NCBI GenBank assembly: GCA_964606085.1
Contig: CAZSFD010000014.1
Location: 3,469-67,468, forward strand
DNA length: 64,000 bases
Origin: an uncultured Anaerolineaceae bacterium
GTDB taxonomy: Bacteria; Chloroflexota; Anaerolineae; Anaerolineales; UBA4823
Reading direction: 5' to 3'
The position numbers and the translations under genes were made by a program. Shown one piece after another: positions 39,127 to 50,003 of this stretch. Within the stretch, counting starts at the first letter, position 1. Every line of letters starts with the position of its first letter. The notes beneath the pieces were generated by a model, which saw only the letters and a list, made by a program, of their open reading frames with translations, was not told the DNA's origin and made no database searches.

Positions 39127-39157
39127 AAAACGGGCGCTGCAAGCGCCCGTTTTTTTA
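39124..39157. terminator. Bidirectional rho-independent terminator
   Basis: AAAAAACGGGCGCT gca AGCGCCCGTTTTTTT lies between convergent genes. It overlaps the TAA of the minus-strand gene. Confidence 0.85.
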
Positions 39158-40249
39158 CTGTATGTTCAATTCTTCCACCCGCAAATTCGCCAGGTCGCTG
39201 CGCCCCAGGCCGCGCTGGGCGGCGGCAGCCACATAAACGAGGTCTTCGGGCTGTAAGCCGAACAGCGTGGCGGTGTAGCTGTCGAGGGCCACGATGTCGC
39301 GTGAAACGATGATCGTGTCGGCTTTTTTGACTTCTTGCAAGCTGAAACCCGTGGGGCCGCCATCCATCATCATGCGCACGGCATCCATCACGTTCAGCGT
39401 CGGGCGCAGCACCGAGATCAGGTCGGCCAGGCGGTTGCCGAAGGTCTCGCCAAAAAAGGTCACTTCGGTATCGTGCATGGCCGGGCGGTTGGAGATGACC
39501 CCCATCAGGTTCTTCATTCCCAGGGTCAACCTGGCGTTGGCGTGATGCTTGGCAATGGGGACGTTGATGACCACATCGGCTTTGAGAATTTCTTCGTAGA
39601 TGCCAAATTCCTGAAATTGCACGCCCTGTGGCGCAGGCGTGGCGATGAACTTCTCCACGGGCATCCACTCCATCACGCCGCCCGCCGCCTCCACCTGCTC
39701 CTGAATGCCGCTGCGGGCGTAGGCTTCGGTCATGTTGCGTTGCCAGGTCTGATCCATCACGCGCACGCTGGCTGCCCCGGCTTCGAAGGCCATCTTGACG
39801 AGCGTGCCGACCACCCACGGGTTGGTGGTGGCGGCCCATTGGTAAGTGCGGAAATCTACGCAGATGTTGGGTTTGACGATCACGTTCGCGCCAGGGAAGA
39901 CGAACTGCTCCATGCCACCCAGGGCGGCGATGGCGCGGCGCACCAGGTCTTCGGGTTCACCGTTACGGGCTACGATGATGTCGGGGCCGGGGGTGGGCGT
40001 GGCGGAGGGGGCGGGCGTTTCGGTGGGGATTGGCGCGTCGGTGGGTGCGCTGGTTGCACTGGGGGGAACGGTGAAGGTGGGTGGTGGCGGTTGGGTGGCC
40101 GTTGGCTGTGGGCGCGGCGTTTGGCTGGCCGCCGGCAGCGCCGCGGCAGGCGTGCTGGTTTCATCTACCCCGCAGGCCGCCAGGGCCAGCGCCGATACAC
40201 TGGTTGCTGCAATGCGCAGGAATTGTTTGCGAGAGAGCGCCTTTTTCAT
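39155..40249 (-). CDS. DUF362-like lipoprotein (extracytoplasmic paralog)
   Basis: The start MKKALSRKQFLRIAATSVSALALAACG gives a lipobox, followed by a PT linker. Motifs seen: ANVIVKPNICV, PIAKHHANARLTLGMKNLMGV, IIVSRDIVALDSY. Confidence 0.7.
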   Translation of the reverse strand: MKKALSRKQFLRIAATSVSALALAACGVDETSTPAAALPAASQTPRPQPTATQPPPPTFTVPPSATSAPTDAPIPTETPAPSATPTPGPDIIVARNGEPEDLVRRAIAALGGMEQFVFPGANVIVKPNICVDFRTYQWAATTNPWVVGTLVKMAFEAGAASVRVMDQTWQRNMTEAYARSGIQEQVEAAGGVMEWMPVEKFIATPAPQGVQFQEFGIYEEILKADVVINVPIAKHHANARLTLGMKNLMGVISNRPAMHDTEVTFFGETFGNRLADLISVLRPTLNVMDAVRMMMDGGPTGFSLQEVKKADTIIVSRDIVALDSYTATLFGLQPEDLVYVAAAAQRGLGRSDLANLRVEELNIQ

Positions 40250-40299
40250 GGGCAAGGTGTCCTTTCGATACCGTTCTATATTCCGATACAATTAGTCGT

Positions 40300-40356: not shown

Positions 40357-41442
40357 TTACGGGCTGTTGAGCGCCTGGCGCATCACGGCCAGCACGGCCT
40401 CCTGAACCGGGAGCAGCACCTGGGCGCCGCCCGATGTGACCCACGGAACGAGCTGCTCATAGCCAATGCCATAGCGATGAATGCGGGTGGGATCGAGCAA
40501 TTGCGTTGCCAGCGGCAGCAGGGGGGCCACATCTTCAAAGCGGATGTTGGTGACGACGTTGTTGATATAGATATTGTATAAATCGGGGGCGCGTTTGACG
40601 GCATCTAAGCTCATCAATTTTTGGAAGATCGCCAGCAGCACTTCTTGTTGGCGGCGGCCGCGGTCTATGTCGTTGGTGGAGTAGCGCGAGCGCACATACC
40701 ACAGCGCCGTCTCGCCGTCCATGTGGTTGAGGCCGGCGGGCATGGTGTAATCGCCATAGCCCGTGCGGTGGTCGGTTAACGTCACGGCCACCTGCACGTC
40801 AATTCCTCCCAGGTTGTCAATCACTTCTTTGAAGGACCAGAAGTTGATCACCACATAATGGCTGGGCCGCACACCGAAATTGTATTCCATCGTGATCGCC
40901 AGCGCATCGAACCCGCCATAGCCAAAGGCGGTGTTGATGCGCTGCGTTGTCCAGCCAGGGATATAGACGTACAGGTCGCGCGGAAACGAGGTCAGGCTGA
41001 CGGTGCCGGCCTGCGGGTTGAGCGTGGCTAACAAAAGGGTGTCGGTGCGAAACCCGCCGCTATCAGGACGCTGATCTGAACCCAGCAGCAGGATATTCAC
41101 CTGGCCTTCGGGCTGTGGCAGCAAACCCACGGGCGGGGGGATGTCAATATCAGGCCAGACCGATGGCCCCGGATACGTATCCCAATTGGTTGGCGACTGG
41201 TTGGAGATGACCACATCGGCGGCTGGCGTTTGTGCGGGCTCGGTGGATAGGGCGTTGGCCACGGGCAGATAAGTGGCCGTGGGCGCCAGCGGCTGGAATG
41301 GCGTGGGCGTGGGCGTTGAACCCGCTGGCCCAATCGCCAGGATGGGTGGCATGTAGCCCGGCGAAAACGGCCCCCCGCAGGCAGCTAACGCCAGGCTGCA
41401 TAGCCACAAAAAAATGCCTATGGGGGCAATCGTGCGTCTCAT
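40357..41442 (-). CDS. LytR-CpsA-Psr (LCP) family protein
   Basis: Motifs seen: NILLLGSDQRPD, RTDTLLLATLNP, SLTSFPRDLYVYIPGW, RINTAFGYGG. The N-terminal signal carries LALAACGG. Confidence 0.85.
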   Translation of the reverse strand: MRRTIAPIGIFLWLCSLALAACGGPFSPGYMPPILAIGPAGSTPTPTPFQPLAPTATYLPVANALSTEPAQTPAADVVISNQSPTNWDTYPGPSVWPDIDIPPPVGLLPQPEGQVNILLLGSDQRPDSGGFRTDTLLLATLNPQAGTVSLTSFPRDLYVYIPGWTTQRINTAFGYGGFDALAITMEYNFGVRPSHYVVINFWSFKEVIDNLGGIDVQVAVTLTDHRTGYGDYTMPAGLNHMDGETALWYVRSRYSTNDIDRGRRQQEVLLAIFQKLMSLDAVKRAPDLYNIYINNVVTNIRFEDVAPLLPLATQLLDPTRIHRYGIGYEQLVPWVTSGGAQVLLPVQEAVLAVMRQALNSP

Positions 41443-42362
41443 GGGTTTTCTGCCGAGGGGGTGTCGCTGGGGATGGCCGCTGGCGTTTGGCTCGGCTCAG
41501 GCGTGGCTGTGGGTTCGGGCGTGGCTGTGGGTTCAGGGGTATCCGTGGCCGTTGCAGATGGCGTATCGGTGGGCGTGGGCGTGGCGGTTGGCTCTTCGGG
41601 CAGCAGCGTGGGGGTGCTTGTGGGGGTGGGGGTTTCTGTGGCGGGGATGGGTGTGGTTGGCTCAGGCGTGTGTGTGGCGGTTTCGGTGGGTGTGATGGCT
41701 GTCGTCGGTGCGGGGATGGTTGCGCTGGCGGTGGCTTCGGGGGTGAGGCTGGGCAGCGGGGTGATCGTCGGCGCAATGGGTTCGATGGGTGGGCGGTTGG
41801 GCACATAGAGCTTTTGCCCGGCGCGGATCAGGTCGCTGGCGAGGCAATTGGCGAAGCGCAATTCGTCCACCGTGGTGGCAAATAACTGGCTGATGGCCAG
41901 CAAGGTGTCGCCAGGCCGCACCTGGTAAGTCACCCACCCTGGATATGGGCCGCACGGTAAGCTGGTGTCTGTCGGGGCCACGGCTGGCACATAGAGGGTC
42001 GCCCCGGCGATCAGTCTGTCTATCAGCAGGCAGTTGACGCGTTTCAATTCAGCGGCGCTGATGCCATAGCGTTCGGCCAGGGTGGTCAGGTCATCGCCGG
42101 GTTGAATGTTGATGGCGATCCAGTTGGCTGGCTGGGGGCAGGCGGTGGGCAGGGCGGCTGACCGGGGCGGTGTGGCCGCGAACGTGACGGTTGGTTGACC
42201 AGGCGTGCGGATGAACTGCGGCCCGACGGTATTGACCGCCGTTGCCAGCAGCGCAATGGCTGGTTGTCCTTCGGCAAATGCCAGCGCCATACTGCCGATC
42301 ACCAGGAGCAGCGAGACACAAGCCAGGGCAATACCCGCAAAAGCCTGTTTCAACGCGCTCAT
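41439..42362 (-). CDS. LysM-domain protein with long C-terminal PT-rich tail
   Basis: One N-terminal hydrophobic helix. Two LysM repeats: IQPGDDLTTLAERYGISAAELKRVN and VRPGDTLLAISQLFATTVDELRFAN..AGQKLYVP. The tail includes EPTATPEPTATPEPSQTP, encoded by an 18-bp tandem at 41500-41535. Confidence 0.85.
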   Translation of the reverse strand: MSALKQAFAGIALACVSLLLVIGSMALAFAEGQPAIALLATAVNTVGPQFIRTPGQPTVTFAATPPRSAALPTACPQPANWIAINIQPGDDLTTLAERYGISAAELKRVNCLLIDRLIAGATLYVPAVAPTDTSLPCGPYPGWVTYQVRPGDTLLAISQLFATTVDELRFANCLASDLIRAGQKLYVPNRPPIEPIAPTITPLPSLTPEATASATIPAPTTAITPTETATHTPEPTTPIPATETPTPTSTPTLLPEEPTATPTPTDTPSATATDTPEPTATPEPTATPEPSQTPAAIPSDTPSAENP

Positions 42363-44761
42363 ACTTTTCCTCGTGCGCCGTTCCCATTCCCCCCGGTCAG
42401 GCTTGGCGCGGATACGGGCAGCAACACGCTGAACATCGAACCGTGGCCTTTTTGCGAGTCAACCCAAATGCGTCCCTTTTGGGCCTCGACCAGTGATTTT
42501 ACGATGGACAACCCGACGCCGGTATCTCCAACGCCCGGAATGAGCGGGTTATCCGCTTTGTACAGGCGCGAGAAAACGCGCGGCAGTTCGTCCTGTGGGA
42601 TGCCCTCGCCGCTGTCGGCCACGCGAATCAGCACGAAATGGGCGTTCTGATCGCCTTCTTCGATGTGGGCATGAAGCGAAATCTCACCATCCACCGGCGA
42701 AGCCAGGCCGGCATTTTGCAGCAGGTGGATCAAGATTTGCTGCAAAGCATCGCGGTCGGCGTAGATGTGCGGCAATTGTTCGGGCAGTTCGAGCCGCAGG
42801 GCGATGTTCTTCTCGCGGATTTGCACAACCGCTGCTGTGAGCGCCTCATCAATGGCGGCGCCCAGGTCAACACTTTCGCTATGATGAGAGGGCGTTTCGT
42901 TCAAAGTGATGCGTACCAGGTCTTCGACCAGCGTCCCCAGGCGTTCGCTGGCGATTTTGACCCGTTCGATGAACTTACGCTGTGACGCGCCCAACAGTCC
43001 TACCGATTCACCCAAGAGCAAATCGGTATAGCCGATGATCGAAAACAGGGGTTGGCGCAATTCCTGAGCCATGGCGGCAATCACAGCATCATTTTCGGGC
43101 GAGGCGGCATCGGTTGGTCTGGCGCGTTGCAGTTCCATCAGGCGCTGATCGGCCTCAAACAGGCGCTCATTGAGGCGGGTGATCTCTTCGAGCGAAATGC
43201 GCAATTGCTCCTCGAGTTGGGTCACTTCGCTCAAGCTATTGTTGGAGGATTGCTGGACATTCAGCTTGATCTGTTGATTCTCCGCCTGCAAGCGCGCCAG
43301 TTCTTCCAGGGTCAGGCGAAGCTGTTCTTTGAGTTGTTCGGTTTCGCTGTTGGAAAAACGCCCCTGGCCCAGCGCGGCAATCGCCGCCGTGGCCGGGGTT
43401 TGCGCCGAACGGTTGAGCAGCGCTTCCTTTTCCTGGCGCAATTCTGTAATTTGTTTGCGCGCCGCTGCCAGGGCTTGCTGGGCCTGTTCCAATTCCTGGC
43501 GCATGGCTGCGCTTGGCTGGTTTTGATGCAAGATGCGTGCCATCAGGCTGGCAATCTGGTTCAAATTGGCCTGGTCATCGTTCGTCCAGCCGCGATGCGA
43601 ATAGGGCGAGAGCAGCACGATGCCCATCAAGTTGATTTTGTCTTCCACGGGGAATGGCACAACCAGCATGTGTCCCACACGCCCGATGCCCAGCACATTG
43701 GCAAAACCCAACAGATCGGGCGAGGTGCTGCTGGCGGGCAGGCGCACTGAACGGTTACGCCGCAAAGCGCTGGAAATGATCGGCGAGAGACGTTCGTCAA
43801 TCGAAAAACCTTCGATGCTCTGCTGGCGGATCAAATCATATCCACAGGATACATTTAACTGTTTGCTATCCGCAGGCATCGAAACCATGAAGCACAGATC
43901 GGCCACCATCATTTGCGAAATGACTTTCGATAGCCCATCACACGCTTTACCGGGTATGGTGTTGCTGACCAGGTGCAAAAATTCCTGGATCAGACGCGGG
44001 TCTGAGTTGTAGCGCCGTTTTTCGGCAATGAGGCCCTTTTGCGCTGGGCTGACTGCTTTGTCTTCCTGGCGTTCGATCACGCCGGGGAAGCGCATGGGCA
44101 GGCCAAGCAGCAGCGGATAGGCCGCCAACTGCACCAGGCGTAATGCCCCGGCATAATCGGCTGTGGGCTGGTAGGCAAAGCTCAAGCTGCCCAGGTAGCC
44201 CATGGCTGTAAGGGTCAGCATCCCCAGGCCCAATCCCCAGCCATTAGGCCGCCGCAGCGCCAGCAGCAGGCATCCTGCCAGCGATAAGGCCAGGCCGAGC
44301 CACCCGGCTGCCTGATCCAGCCCGGAGGCGTTGAAGGGCATTTGCCCGCTTTCGGTTTGCCATAATAAGATGGCCGGGATCATCCCGACGCCGATGAACA
44401 GGCTCAACAGCAGGGTCGCGGCATCGCCGGGCCGCGAAGGCTCAGGAAAGCCCCACAACCAGATGATGGCGACCACGCTCAACAATCCCACGATGCGATC
44501 CAGCGGCGGCAGGGCGTATGGCATGGCCAAAACACCTATGTAGGCCAACAAGGCTGCTGCAAGCAAAATGGCCTGCAGCCCTAACAGCCAGGCCATGCCT
44601 CTGCTGGCGCGTGCCGCCTGCGGGAAACCGCTGGCGCGCCAATGGTTGACGCATACCATCAGCCCCATCACCATCGAAAAAATGGTGATCAAATGGTATG
44701 CCAGGCTGCCTGGTGTTGTCACCAGGATGGTTAGAAGTTGTTCAAAAAACGCACCCATCAC
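42359..44761 (-). CDS. Membrane sensor histidine-kinase-like protein lacking the phospho-acceptor His (H-box AQELRQPL)
   Basis: About 6-7 N-terminal helices, a GAF-like region and a coiled coil. The DHp helix is AAMAQELRQPLFSIIGYTDLLL, with Gln codon CAG at 43064-43066. The HATPase motifs are intact: LIHLLQNA, DSGEGIP, GDTGVGLSIV. Confidence 0.85.
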   Translation of the reverse strand: MMGAFFEQLLTILVTTPGSLAYHLITIFSMVMGLMVCVNHWRASGFPQAARASRGMAWLLGLQAILLAAALLAYIGVLAMPYALPPLDRIVGLLSVVAIIWLWGFPEPSRPGDAATLLLSLFIGVGMIPAILLWQTESGQMPFNASGLDQAAGWLGLALSLAGCLLLALRRPNGWGLGLGMLTLTAMGYLGSLSFAYQPTADYAGALRLVQLAAYPLLLGLPMRFPGVIERQEDKAVSPAQKGLIAEKRRYNSDPRLIQEFLHLVSNTIPGKACDGLSKVISQMMVADLCFMVSMPADSKQLNVSCGYDLIRQQSIEGFSIDERLSPIISSALRRNRSVRLPASSTSPDLLGFANVLGIGRVGHMLVVPFPVEDKINLMGIVLLSPYSHRGWTNDDQANLNQIASLMARILHQNQPSAAMRQELEQAQQALAAARKQITELRQEKEALLNRSAQTPATAAIAALGQGRFSNSETEQLKEQLRLTLEELARLQAENQQIKLNVQQSSNNSLSEVTQLEEQLRISLEEITRLNERLFEADQRLMELQRARPTDAASPENDAVIAAMAQELRQPLFSIIGYTDLLLGESVGLLGASQRKFIERVKIASERLGTLVEDLVRITLNETPSHHSESVDLGAAIDEALTAAVVQIREKNIALRLELPEQLPHIYADRDALQQILIHLLQNAGLASPVDGEISLHAHIEEGDQNAHFVLIRVADSGEGIPQDELPRVFSRLYKADNPLIPGVGDTGVGLSIVKSLVEAQKGRIWVDSQKGHGSMFSVLLPVSAPSLTGGNGNGARGKV

Positions 44762-44832: not shown

Positions 44833-44841
44833 ATTATAGCA
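44833..44841 (-). promoter_or_regulatory. Extended -10 TGCTATAAT (minus strand) for the kinase-LysM-LCP operon
   Basis: The complement of attatagca, about 72 nt upstream of ATG 44761. Confidence 0.4.
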
Positions 44842-46462: not shown

Positions 46463-47527
46463 CTAGGGAACCGGTAAGATCACTGTAATTTTTGTGCCTT
46501 TGCCCACTTCGCTTTGTAAGACAATGCGCCCGTTGTGGCGTTTGATCACCCGGTCGCATACGGCCAGGCCCAGGCCGGTGCCATGCCCGGCAGATTTGGT
46601 GGTGTAGAAGGGGTCGAAAATGCGGGGGAGATGTTCGGGCGCGATGCCTTTGCCGTTATCGGCCACGCTGATGTGTACTTCATTGCCAACCAGTTCGGAA
46701 CTGATGTGGATTTCGCCGGCGGTTTTTTCAAAAGCGTCAATGGCATTCAGCAGCAGGTTCACCCACACGCCTTGCAGGTGACTTTGGCTGGCGCGTACGA
46801 ATGGTAAGGTGCTGGAAAGGTTGCTGTGCAGGGAAAGCGAATTGGCAACCACCTCGTGTTTGACCAGTTCAATTGCTTTGCGAATGGTGTCGTTGATCTG
46901 GGTGGGCAGAAATTCGTATTGCTCCAGGCGGGCCAGGTCGAGCAGGCTGCGCACCACCTGGGCGGCGCGTGCGCCAGCTTCGGCAATCATGCTGACCAAT
47001 TCCTGCCGGTCATCCTCTGGCGGGATTTCGCGCTGCAACAATTGGGCGTTGGCCAGGATGGCCGTGAGTGGGTTGTTGATCTCATGCGCCACGCCGGCGG
47101 CAAGCTGCCCGATGGCCGCTAATTGTTCCGACTGCGCCACCAGGCTTTCGAGGCGCTGTCGTTCGGTCACATCCTGCTCTAAAATAACCGTCTGGCTCAC
47201 CTGCTCCTTATCATAAATGGGGTAAGTGCCAATCTCCCAGGTTTGCGCTTCCTGGCTATCCTGGTGCGTGCGTTGGGTGCGGGTGGTGTTTTTGCCGTGG
47301 TTGAATGTCTCGGCAACCAGACAGCCCGGGCATGGTTCGGAGCGTTGATAAAGCGCCTGGTAGCAGATTTGCCCCGCCAAGGCCTGGGGTGATGCGGCGT
47401 GCCGTTGTGCCAGGGCGCGATTGACTGTGACTAACGTGTAATCGCGCTGGATGGCGTAAATGGCAAATGGCAGGCTGTTGATCAGCGCAAGCAGCGGGTC
47501 ACAACAGGTTGGATCGGCGGTGGACAT
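46463..47527 (-). CDS. Soluble PAS-histidine kinase
   Basis: Motifs seen: H-box AAGVAHEINNPLTAI, N-box VNLLLNAIDA, DNGKGI, GHGTGLGLAV. No transmembrane segment. The start at ATG 47527 avoids overlap with the response-regulator gene. Confidence 0.85.
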   Translation of the reverse strand: MSTADPTCCDPLLALINSLPFAIYAIQRDYTLVTVNRALAQRHAASPQALAGQICYQALYQRSEPCPGCLVAETFNHGKNTTRTQRTHQDSQEAQTWEIGTYPIYDKEQVSQTVILEQDVTERQRLESLVAQSEQLAAIGQLAAGVAHEINNPLTAILANAQLLQREIPPEDDRQELVSMIAEAGARAAQVVRSLLDLARLEQYEFLPTQINDTIRKAIELVKHEVVANSLSLHSNLSSTLPFVRASQSHLQGVWVNLLLNAIDAFEKTAGEIHISSELVGNEVHISVADNGKGIAPEHLPRIFDPFYTTKSAGHGTGLGLAVCDRVIKRHNGRIVLQSEVGKGTKITVILPVP

Positions 47528-47540
47528 GGTTGTTGAGGCG

Positions 47541-48287
47541 CTATTCGTTGCCGACGGTGTAACCGTAGCCTGGAACGGTACGGATGAAGGTGGGGGTGCT
47601 GGGGTCTTCTTCGATGCGCTCGCGCAGGTTTTTGATGTGAACACGGACGAGATCGGGGCTGCCGGTGTTGGCGGGGTAATCCCACACTTCATCGAGCAGG
47701 CGCGCCGGTGAGAAGATGCGGCCCGGATGGCTCATCAGATGATAGAGCAGGTCATATTGCACCGGGGTCAGGCGCAGTTTGCCATAGTGGGGGGTGGCTA
47801 ACTCATACGTGCGTGTATCCAGTATGTAGCTGCCAATCACAATTTTTGTACCATCAGCGGGGCTGTTTTCGGCGCTGCCGTTGGAACTGGCTGGCAGTGT
47901 TTTCTGCGCCTGGGTGCGGCGCAAAATGGCGCGCAAGCGCAGGATTAGCTCATCTACATTGAAGGGTTTGGTCAGGTAATCGTCAGCGCCAGCCATGAAG
48001 CCGGCGATCTTGTCTTCGTCTTTGATCTTGGCGGTGAGGAATAAGATGGGGACATGGGTCAGCAAGGGGTCGGCGCGCATTTCGCGGCAGACGGTGTAGC
48101 CATCCATGCCGGGCATGACGATGTCGAGGATGACCAGGTCGGGGATGGCGCGCCGGGCCGTTTTCAGACCATCTACGCCGCTGTTGACGGTGGTAATTTT
48201 GAACTCCTGGCCGCGCAAGCTGCGTTCGATGGTGCGGGCGACGATTTCATCATCTTCAATGATCAACAAGTTGATGCTGTTATTCAT
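47541..48287 (-). CDS. OmpR-family response regulator
   Basis: REC domain motifs LLIIEDDE, DLVILDIVMPGMDG, ILFLTAK. Winged-helix segment LTPVQYDLLYHL..VWDY....VRVHIKNLR..I..TVPGYGY. Confidence 0.9.
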   Translation of the reverse strand: MNNSINLLIIEDDEIVARTIERSLRGQEFKITTVNSGVDGLKTARRAIPDLVILDIVMPGMDGYTVCREMRADPLLTHVPILFLTAKIKDEDKIAGFMAGADDYLTKPFNVDELILRLRAILRRTQAQKTLPASSNGSAENSPADGTKIVIGSYILDTRTYELATPHYGKLRLTPVQYDLLYHLMSHPGRIFSPARLLDEVWDYPANTGSPDLVRVHIKNLRERIEEDPSTPTFIRTVPGYGYTVGNE

Positions 48288-49759
48288 GCGGAACCTCCCA
48301 AAATGACGCGCAAAATTGTACCACGCTGCGGATCGCTCTCGGCTTTGATCTGGCCGTGGTGCTGTTGGACAATGTCATTGCATAAGGAAAACTCGAACCC
48401 GATGCCGCGCTGTTTGACCGCTTTGCGAAAATCGGCTTCAAATAGGTGTGGGATGACTTCTGGCGGGATCGGGGCGCCATCATCATAGATTTCGACCTGC
48501 ACCAGTTTTTCATTGTGTTTGATCGAGCGGACGCGAATGGTGTGGGGGGCGCCATCATTGGTGGCGTCGCGGGCCAGCAGTAGCAGGTTCACCCACAGGT
48601 CGCTGAGTTGGCGCGGGTTGCCATATACTTCGGGCAGGTTGTCGCTCAAGATCACTTCGATGTTGGTGCCATCCATGCGAATAGGATCACTGACCAGGTT
48701 CAGGGCATCGCGGATGGTCTGGTTGATGTTGAGGTTGACCAGGGTGTCGGTGGTTGGGCGGGAAAGTTCCAGTAATTTTTGAACGGCTTCTTGAATGCGC
48801 CAGCCGCCTTTCTGGATGATCTCGACTGATTCGCGTGTGGGGTTGTTTTCGAGGTTTTGCAGCAGCAGGTGGCTTTCGCCGATGATGGCGGTGAGCGGGT
48901 TGTTGATGTGATGCGCCACGCTGGAGGCCATTTCGCCGATGGCAACCAGCCGGGCTGTTTGGGCGATGCGCGCCAGGGCGATGCGCAATTCTTGTTCCAC
49001 CTTTTTGCGCGAGGTGATATCGCGGGTGACATCCATGTAACCGAGCAAACGCCCGTTTTCATAATCGCGCAAAACGCTGATGCGCGAGCTGACCCAAAGG
49101 ATATGTTGGTTGCGCAGGTTGTAGCGGCGTTCGACTTCCTGCCCGGTGGTGCCTTCGCGCGGGGGTTCGCGCACCGGGGGGATAAACAGGTTGTGATAAT
49201 TTTCGACCACTGGCTGGTTGAGCCGTTCGGACGATTTCCAGCCGTAGAGCATTTCGGCGGCGGGATTCCAGTAGGTGATCTTGCCGGTGGTATCCCACAC
49301 CACTACGGCATCGCGCACGTTGTTGAGCAGCAACGCCTGATAGCGGATTTGCTCCATCGAGCGCTGCACGGAGAGTTTGAGCTGGTAAGCCTGGATGGCT
49401 TTTTGGATGATGGCGGGCAGCGTCAGCAGCGATTCGGCGCCTTTGATCATGTAATCGGCTGCGCCCAGGTGCATAGATTTGACGGCGATCCGTTCATCGC
49501 CCTGGCCGGTGATCATGATCACCGGCACCTGGTAGCCGCGGTTTTGCATTTCCACCAGGGCATCCAGGCCGGTGCCATCGGGCAATTTGTAATCGAGCAA
49601 GATGGTGTCGTAGTTGTGGTTGTAAATTTGCGCCCACAGTTCGGCCACGTCTTTCGCCCGCTCCGATGTGAACGGCCCAGAGATGCGCAGAAATTCGGCG
49701 ATCCACTCGGCGTGTTCTTCGTCGTCATCCACAATCAGGATGTGGTAATTTTCAGGCAT
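48284..49759 (-). CDS. Hybrid REC-PAS-histidine kinase
   Basis: N-terminal receiver motifs ILIVDDDEEH, ILLDYKLPDGTG, IMITGQGD. After the PAS region come H-box SSVAHHINNPLTAI, VNLLLLARDA and RGIGFEFS. The start at ATG 49759 overlaps the upstream gene by 8 nt. Confidence 0.85.
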   Translation of the reverse strand: MPENYHILIVDDDEEHAEWIAEFLRISGPFTSERAKDVAELWAQIYNHNYDTILLDYKLPDGTGLDALVEMQNRGYQVPVIMITGQGDERIAVKSMHLGAADYMIKGAESLLTLPAIIQKAIQAYQLKLSVQRSMEQIRYQALLLNNVRDAVVVWDTTGKITYWNPAAEMLYGWKSSERLNQPVVENYHNLFIPPVREPPREGTTGQEVERRYNLRNQHILWVSSRISVLRDYENGRLLGYMDVTRDITSRKKVEQELRIALARIAQTARLVAIGEMASSVAHHINNPLTAIIGESHLLLQNLENNPTRESVEIIQKGGWRIQEAVQKLLELSRPTTDTLVNLNINQTIRDALNLVSDPIRMDGTNIEVILSDNLPEVYGNPRQLSDLWVNLLLLARDATNDGAPHTIRVRSIKHNEKLVQVEIYDDGAPIPPEVIPHLFEADFRKAVKQRGIGFEFSLCNDIVQQHHGQIKAESDPQRGTILRVILGGSA

Positions 49760-50003
49760 ACGATGGCTCCTGAGCTTGTGTGATTTCTTCGGCCACATTG
49801 CGCAGTGCCGGGGCCAGGCAGGCGTTGAGCATGGGGACGGTGTAACGCCGATGTCCGCCTGGCGTGCGCAAGGGTGTGAGTTGCCCCACCTGTTCCATGC
49901 GGTAGAGGGTCGAAAGGCTCACGCGCAAATAGCTGGCGGCTTCGCGGGCGGTGAGCAATTTGAGCGTTTCTTGTGCTGGAGAAAGTTTATCATTCATCTT
50001 CAA
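49752..50003 (-). CDS. Excisionase-type (HTH_17/MerR-like) DNA-binding protein
   Basis: LTAREAASYLRVSLSTLYRMEQVGQLTPLRTPGGHRRY matches the helix-turn-helix_17 pattern. 83 aa. Confidence 0.65.
   Translation of the reverse strand: MKMNDKLSPAQETLKLLTAREAASYLRVSLSTLYRMEQVGQLTPLRTPGGHRRYTVPMLNACLAPALRNVAEEITQAQEPSYA

Follow-up and report, generated by a model that had tools for sequence, protein, structure and literature searches.

A sensor-kinase homologue without the phospho-acceptor histidine heads a conserved LysM-LCP operon in Anaerolineae

The analyzed DNA is a stretch of 64,000 nucleotides from an uncultured Anaerolineaceae bacterium (assembly GCA_964606085.1, contig CAZSFD010000014.1, positions 3,469 to 67,468 of the forward strand), referred to below as the window. 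Its minus strand carries a gene for an 800-residue homologue of sensor histidine kinases, in which glutamine occupies the place of the phospho-acceptor histidine. The gene starts with GTG at 44761 or with the adjacent ATG at 44758, and it heads a conserved operon that continues with genes for a LysM protein and for an LCP (LytR-CpsA-Psr) glycopolymer transferase. The gene and the parts of its product are located as follows.

42359..44761, minus strand: gene for the histidine-less sensor-kinase homologue, 800 residues (open reading frame and Pfam)
44087..44761, minus strand: predicted seven-helix membrane sensor domain, residues 1-225, strongly conserved (model and sequence)
43526..43999, minus strand: GAF-like cytoplasmic domain, residues ~255-412 (Pfam and AlphaFold model)
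43121..43525, minus strand: long helical or coiled-coil linker, residues ~413-547 (secondary structure of the model)
42905..43099, minus strand: DHp (HisKA) hairpin, residues 555-619, with the degenerate H-box QELRQP (Pfam, alignment and model)
43064..43066, minus strand: CAG codon of Gln566, which is aligned with the phospho-acceptor His260 of HK853
43052..43054, minus strand: CAA codon of Gln570, at the position His+4, which is Thr or Asn in HisKA kinases (alignment)
42413..42877, minus strand: CA (HATPase_c) domain for ATP binding, spanning residues 629-783; N, G1, F and G2 boxes all intact (Pfam and HK853 alignment)

Pfam profiles match the protein at residues 559-616 (HisKA, E 1.8e-10) and 669-783 (HATPase_c, E 1e-20) and, weakly, at residues 287-412 (GAF); none of the NCBIfam models matches it at the cut-off. 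The full-length AlphaFold model, based on a 26-sequence alignment (mean predicted local distance difference test score, pLDDT, 77.5), begins with an N-terminal region of eight helices, followed by an alpha/beta domain of GAF-like type, long helices that take up ~135 residues, the DHp hairpin with helices at 555-585 and 590-619, and the CA domain. A fold search with this model yielded ordinary kinase DHp-CA structures only, and the regulators DivL and RetS are among the sequence and fold matches of the protein. Thus, the succession of DHp and HATPase_c domains that is typical of HisKA sensor kinases is seen in the Pfam matches, in the alignment with the kinase HK853 and in the fold matches.

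The H-box of the protein reads AAMAQELRQPL, and the corresponding minus-strand codons gct CAG gaa ttg cgc CAA ccc encode A-Q-E-L-R-Q-P. In the phmmer alignment with HK853 (2C2A/3DGE), IAAMAQELRQPL stands opposite IANISHELRTPL, so that His260 of HK853 is paired with Gln566 and Thr264 with Gln570. Since Gln566 is aligned with His260, it occupies the phospho-acceptor position. A functional HisKA kinase has His at this position and Thr or Asn four residues further (the +4 site); the window protein has Gln at both. This is in agreement with the original prediction, made from the letters of the window alone, which had placed a CAG codon, complementary to 43064-43066, at the phospho-acceptor position. 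It had also noted that both other kinases of the window retain the His, as they do in the motifs VAHEINNPL (46463-47692) and VAHHINNPL (48284-49798).

The codon CAG is one substitution away from CAC and CAT, and one alternative is that the Gln results from a sequencing or assembly error, from a strain mutation or from a pseudogene in the making. The original prediction had named His in read data or in orthologues as the sign of such an event. The alignment of orthologues at this column gave the opposite result, with Gln found in 121 of 121 close homologues. All 120 best homologues, which are full-length proteins with 43-70% identity from metagenome genomes of Anaerolineales/Chloroflexota, contain Q-[E/D]-L-R-Q-P. 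In a scan of one genome per species, at least 556 genomes had a relative of the protein; among the 80 best matches, in which residues were counted, Gln is present at both the former His site and the +4 site in 80 of 80. The codon at the former His site is CAG in 67 of these genomes and CAA in 13, and such synonymous turnover without a change of residue points to purifying selection on Gln in the main clade of the family, to which the window protein belongs.

An identical substitution in hundreds of species with independently assembled genomes is far beyond chance. All genomes that have the gene contain it as an uninterrupted, full-length frame, 97 columns are invariant in the alignment of 26 sequences with 43-70% identity, and 24 positions of the membrane domain are invariant across 32 species. 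Taken together with the retained Gln and with the conserved synteny described below, these observations argue for a gene under purifying selection and not for a decaying pseudogene. Sequencing error and strain mutation are ruled out by the orthologue data, and the chance that artefact or recent decay of any kind explains the Gln is negligible in our estimate. The comparison of orthologues confirms the loss of the phospho-acceptor His as real and ancient.

A different pattern is observed in the wider family. A query with the N-terminal part of the protein (residues 1-545) retrieved 846 clusters at 50% identity, 401 of them with E <= 1e-30. Among 118 DHp-bearing representatives at this identity level, the former His site is occupied by Gln in 81, Arg in 9, Glu in 8, His in 4, Leu, Met, Lys, Thr and Ser in 2 each, and Gly, Ile and Asp in 1 each; most of the non-Gln residues are one nucleotide away from CAG. 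In a working kinase, the phospho-acceptor site is expected to be the most conserved position. Here it is the most variable position in an otherwise conserved H-box, with a column entropy of 2.04 bits against 1.24, 0.94, 0.73, 1.06 and 0.62 bits for the next five positions. On a tree of 79 members, rooted on a clade of His-bearing paralogues that share the sensor and have no LysM gene after them, the site has changed its state at least 28 times. The H-boxes in other orders of Anaerolineae read QELRTP, EELRTP, GELRTP or NEFRNP; only the order of the window shows the replacement of Thr by Gln at +4.

His at the former acceptor site occurs in two settings. Members with HELRQ are nested within Gln clades (99% support in the Shimodaira-Hasegawa-like approximate likelihood ratio test). 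Because all of the HELRQP members (P0138, P0165, P0231 and P0264) have degenerate G2 boxes, they appear to be products of neutral Q-to-H drift and not restored kinases. The second setting is provided by three LysM-linked members from one family of the class (loci L072-L074 of genomes G137, G048 and G094) with the H-box AHELRTPMTSI.GYTDLL. All three have intact N and G1 boxes. An intact G2 box is found in L072 and L074, the first Gly of the box being replaced by Asp in L073. These members branch near the base of the tree, where the support is only 89-91%, and they may be an ancestral holdover, that is, a surviving lineage of active kinases. The paralogue clade used as the root (L070, L075, L083 and L085 from genomes G058, G094, G145 and G104) combines the same seven-helix and GAF sensor with a canonical SHELRTPMTSVKGY H-box and intact ATP boxes, and no LysM gene follows; in some genomes both the His paralogue and the Gln form are present.

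In the genome samples, the family is present in 44 of 151 genomes of the class and in 41 of 41 close relatives, and the genomes sampled from the other classes of Chloroflexota contained no member. On this sampling, the family is confined to the class Anaerolineae. Two contigs on which a typical family member is found in the LysM-LCP context bear the names Syntrophothermus sp. and Bacteroidota bacterium (L095, JBLNAU010000172, and L096, JBLMZU010000259, respectively). Probably, they are mis-binned or mislabelled Anaerolineae contigs from one project.

The ATP-binding motifs had been predicted to be intact, which held for the window protein and its subclade. The boxes of the protein are LLQNA (N), DSGEGI (G1), F730..Y734 with the pattern F..LY (F) and GDTGVGLS (G2), and all 26 aligned members of the subclade share the residues N683, D716, G718, G720, G748 and G750. 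Among 120 representatives of the family, the Asn of the N box is retained in 91% and the Asp, Gly and Gly of the G1 box in 94-97%; both G2 glycines are retained in only 46, the G2 box being degenerate in about 60% of the family. Loss of G2 accompanies non-Gln residues at the former His site (39/41 versus 7/33, Fisher p = 0.0013, uncorrected for phylogeny). By these alignments, the family falls into two grades: the main clade keeps both the Gln and a complete nucleotide site, and other clades let both decay. The clades with a decayed former His site and G2 box still retain the protein and the operon, which argues that chemistry on the gamma-phosphate is not the family-wide function. In the lineage of the window, nucleotide binding probably still matters.

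The state of the CA domain also bears on the possibility that the protein is an active ATP-using enzyme with a non-canonical acceptor, either one of its own residues or a Ser, Thr or Tyr of a partner. Such acceptors occur with the same ATP-binding fold in plant phytochromes, mitochondrial PDK/BCK kinases and anti-sigma-factor kinases. The intact N, G1, F and G2 boxes with key residues invariant throughout the 26-member subclade are in line with this explanation, as is the purifying selection on the Gln and its acidic neighbour Glu567 in the subclade. On the other hand, helix 1 of the DHp domain offers no alternative His in the family, a candidate substrate motif was not found, and the protein and operon persist in the about 60% of representatives that have lost G2. 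We consider an enzyme of this type unlikely.

Another function that could survive the loss of the His is that of a dedicated phosphatase: the protein would be kinase-negative and would dephosphorylate a regulator encoded elsewhere, stimulated by its CA domain and bound nucleotide. The His is not an absolute requirement for the phosphatase activity of HisKA proteins, as illustrated by the CrdA~P half-life, which is 2.6 min with CrdS H371A, 0.7 min with the wild type and 53.5 min with no kinase (PMC3510030), and ADP and the CA domain stimulate the phosphatase of HK853 and EnvZ (PMC7005713). The rest of the H-box (E/D-L-R-x-P) and the DHp domain are strongly conserved here, and Thr is found at +4 (QELRTP) in other orders of Anaerolineae. 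However, the Thr or Asn of the E/DxxT/N motif is required for HisKA phosphatases; CrdS loses the activity in both N375A and N375Q, and N375Q, the equivalent of Gln570, has no measurable activity (PMC3510030). Since +4 is Gln in all 80 best species genomes of the window's order, canonical phosphatase action is unlikely in that order. Moreover, no regulator is conserved near the gene in any lineage examined, the G2 box with the ATP lid is degenerate in most of the family, and Arg, Lys, Leu, Met and Ile are tolerated at the former His site. A dedicated phosphatase is in our view a poor candidate, quite improbable for the window protein.

The membrane part of the sensor is strongly conserved, and no known structure matches it significantly. 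Modelled alone with AlphaFold, the membrane domain reaches a pLDDT of 89.4 and a predicted TM-score of 0.85. The positive-inside rule predicts seven transmembrane helices that lead from an outer N-terminus to an inner C-terminus. The domain has no Pfam match even at E = 1. Homology to G-protein-coupled receptors or rhodopsins was considered and rejected, as the matches are generic seven-helix bundles (E >= 0.017, TM-score about 0.5) and reflect topology, not homology. A precomputed table gives PF28159 for one homologue, a family outside the Pfam set searched here.

The output part of the system is suggested by the operon. The two genes downstream and a possible promoter element are as follows.

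41439..42362, minus strand: second gene, protein with a membrane anchor, two LysM domains and a tail rich in Pro and Thr
40357..41442, minus strand: third gene, LCP glycopolymer transferase with a lipobox-like N-terminus, LALAAC
44833..44841, minus strand: TGCTATAAT, possible extended -10 element, ~70 nucleotides upstream of the start (sequence reading only)

Adjacent genes overlap by 4 nucleotides at both junctions, that is, at the stop of the kinase-like gene and the start of the LysM gene, and between the LysM and LCP genes. Of 71 species loci with sufficient flanking sequence, 70 have the order kinase-like gene, LysM, LCP. This order is also observed in 18 genomes across the taxonomic order of the window, and a LysM gene follows the kinase-like gene in most other orders of Anaerolineae. 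Translational coupling and nearly universal synteny make the cell wall the most likely place of the output. Both the LysM and the LCP proteins (40357-42362, minus strand) have long Pro/Thr-rich linkers, and the lipobox-like LALAAC of the LCP protein suggests a lipoprotein anchor. The two-hexamer promoter scan did not pick up the TGCTATAAT element, and sites resembling intrinsic terminators are no commoner than in shuffled sequence.

The absence of an adjacent response regulator, as predicted originally, is upheld. The operon contains no gene with a receiver (REC) domain, and none is conserved among about 135 neighbourhoods, where only sporadic matches occur; a partner encoded farther away is conceivable. 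The nearest response regulator is the OmpR-type gene at 47541-48287. It belongs to a separate operon (46463-50003, minus strand), which encodes a soluble PAS kinase (VAHEINNPL), this regulator and a REC-PAS kinase (VAHHINNPL), and its neighbourhood is kept in the same genus only (L021). More generally, the upstream genes (cyclase, TlyA and the phosphorelay with the OmpR-type regulator) are conserved only within the genus.

Other neighbours vary between lineages. In loci L022-L038, a small single-pass coiled-coil membrane protein of about 125-130 residues is encoded divergently about 0.3-1 kb upstream (e.g., L023:4039-4425). It is present in 14 of 19 order-level loci, with few further loci added by tblastn, and is absent from the window and its closest relative. 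The protein is weakly similar to DivIC/FtsB, the Pfam match (E 0.006) being below the threshold and usable as a lead only. At ten loci (L022, L025, L028-L032, L034, L035 and L037), the LCP gene is followed by a gene for a ~370-residue protein with a SnoaL-like C-terminal domain and an N-terminal domain of no assigned family, and gyrA lies beyond it on the opposite strand. The window has a DUF362 lipoprotein gene (39155-40291) in place of the SnoaL-like gene after LCP.

On balance, we judge it fairly probable that the window protein is a pseudo-kinase that passes the state of its sensor on through conformation and contacts with other proteins, the LysM/LCP module of wall-polymer attachment being the most likely recipient. 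The kinase fold is kept and the His is replaced throughout the orthologous group, as in other pseudo-histidine kinases. The initial assignment to this class, with DivL as the precedent, gains support from the Gln found across orthologues, from its synonymous turnover and from the drift of the site elsewhere, and the role proposed with it, a scaffold or an ATP-dependent sensor, is plausible for such a protein. The original prediction did not include the Gln at +4, the place of the gene at the head of a LysM-LCP operon or the decay of the ATP lid in much of the wider family.

The favoured scenario starts with the replacement of His by Gln in an ancestor within the class Anaerolineae. Because the canonical acceptor is replaced, the protein would neither autophosphorylate at the canonical site nor provide an input to a His-Asp relay, and in the window's order Gln at +4 would make dephosphorylation of a canonical regulator unlikely as well. 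Selection has kept the DHp surface and, in the lineage of the window, the nucleotide motifs, which suggests that ATP or ADP may still be bound and that the protein still switches. The membrane and GAF sensor would continue to drive a conformational change, and the signal would travel onward by protein contacts, not by phosphotransfer. The most likely output would be the control or scaffolding of cell-wall glycopolymer attachment.

A more specific version can be offered as tentative and is itself rather doubtful. The seven-helix domain might read a cue from the membrane or from wall precursors, and the Gln-bearing DHp with a nucleotide-loaded CA domain might gate or position the LysM and LCP proteins, so as to site glycopolymers along the filaments; a structural role of the Gln would then have been selected over His.

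Several points count against the pseudo-kinase interpretation. The Gln is selected in the main clade, and thus it does something that a pure dead-site model leaves unexplained. The intact ATP motifs in the subclade of the window would also fit an active enzyme with another substrate, and the orders with QELRTP keep Thr at +4, so that phosphatase activity could persist there. The association of non-Gln residues with decay of G2 is uncorrected for phylogeny. Synteny suggests a functional link to LysM and LCP without proving it, and we infer the loss of autophosphorylation, the nucleotide binding and the contact with the LysM and LCP proteins.

Anaerolineae are abundant, poorly studied, filamentous bacteria. 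To our knowledge, only a few pseudo-histidine kinases have been studied (DivL, PsmA, RocA and plant receptors). Literature searches yielded no paper that describes the family, and none on an operon of kinase, LysM and LCP genes in Chloroflexota. Thus, the kind of protein is known from DivL and PsmA, and the family itself is undescribed. It is a large family of probable pseudo-kinases spread across one class, with the 846 clusters and at least 556 species mentioned above. Since database records label its members "sensor histidine kinase" or "ATP-binding protein", a protein that would be unable to relay phosphate is included whenever two-component systems are counted in Chloroflexota genomes. 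The family also provides a natural series of decay of the kinase fold: Gln with a full ATP site, drift with loss of the lid, and His regained without the lid. The association with LysM and LCP is a testable lead on the regulation of wall-polymer attachment. If the gating of LysM and LCP is true, it would represent a class-wide output route for the kinase fold that is free of two-component signalling.

Among proteins of solved structure, the best match is HK853 from Thermotoga maritima (2C2A, 3DGE), with E values of 2e-25 to 2e-24 over the whole DHp-CA region. Both proteins have the N, G1, F and G2 boxes, and their H-boxes align position by position. They differ in the catalytic positions, His260 and Thr264 in HK853 versus Gln566 and Gln570 in the window protein, and in the partner, HK853 having the cognate regulator RR468 and the window protein none. 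RetS of Pseudomonas aeruginosa and RocA of group A Streptococcus are similar to it in that a kinase-like fold modulates signalling via protein-protein contacts (6DK7; PMC7028121). However, they act on the partner kinases GacS and CovS, respectively, and the genome of the window contains the sensor domain in a single copy. With no paralogue of this kind available as a partner, a RetS-like heterodimer is rejected for this genome.

The precedent named originally, DivL of Caulobacter crescentus (PDB 4Q20; PMC4211667), likewise has a full DHp-CA fold, replacement of the His in all orthologues, and signalling by protein contacts in place of phosphotransfer. At the same time, DivL is an alphaproteobacterial protein with PAS sensor domains, a single membrane anchor, Tyr at the former His site and a place in the CckA/DivK cell-cycle network, whereas the window protein, which occurs in Anaerolineae only, combines a seven-helix membrane domain with a GAF-like domain and a coiled coil, and its gene is part of a LysM-LCP operon. 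By its Gln in place of Tyr, its architecture and its restriction to Anaerolineae, it falls outside the DivL orthologous group. The link between the two proteins is limited to the shared HisKA/HATPase_c fold, and HK853 is a better sequence match than DivL.

Another comparison is provided by PsmA of the Streptomyces venezuelae polarisome (PMC12963549), a conserved kinase-like protein, linked to cell-wall growth, of a filamentous, monoderm-type host. In PsmA orthologues, as in the family described here, the residue at the former His site varies (E, D, Q, V, Y) with the neighbouring H-box residues conserved, and the E/DxxT/N phosphatase motif is missing too; PsmA lacks autokinase activity, and restoring the motif leaves its function unchanged (PMC12963549). 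Differences are seen in the domain structure of PsmA, a cytoplasmic hybrid protein that combines a DivIVA-binding N-terminus, the H-box xSLRGP and a C-terminal receiver domain and is found in Streptomycetaceae only (PMC12963549). The window protein, with a membrane-embedded N-terminus, no receiver domain and a host from another phylum, does not belong to the PsmA orthologous group. In contrast to PsmA, it is polytopic, has the H-box (Q)ELRQP with the Gln kept throughout the main clade, and is linked to LysM and LCP instead of the polarisome.

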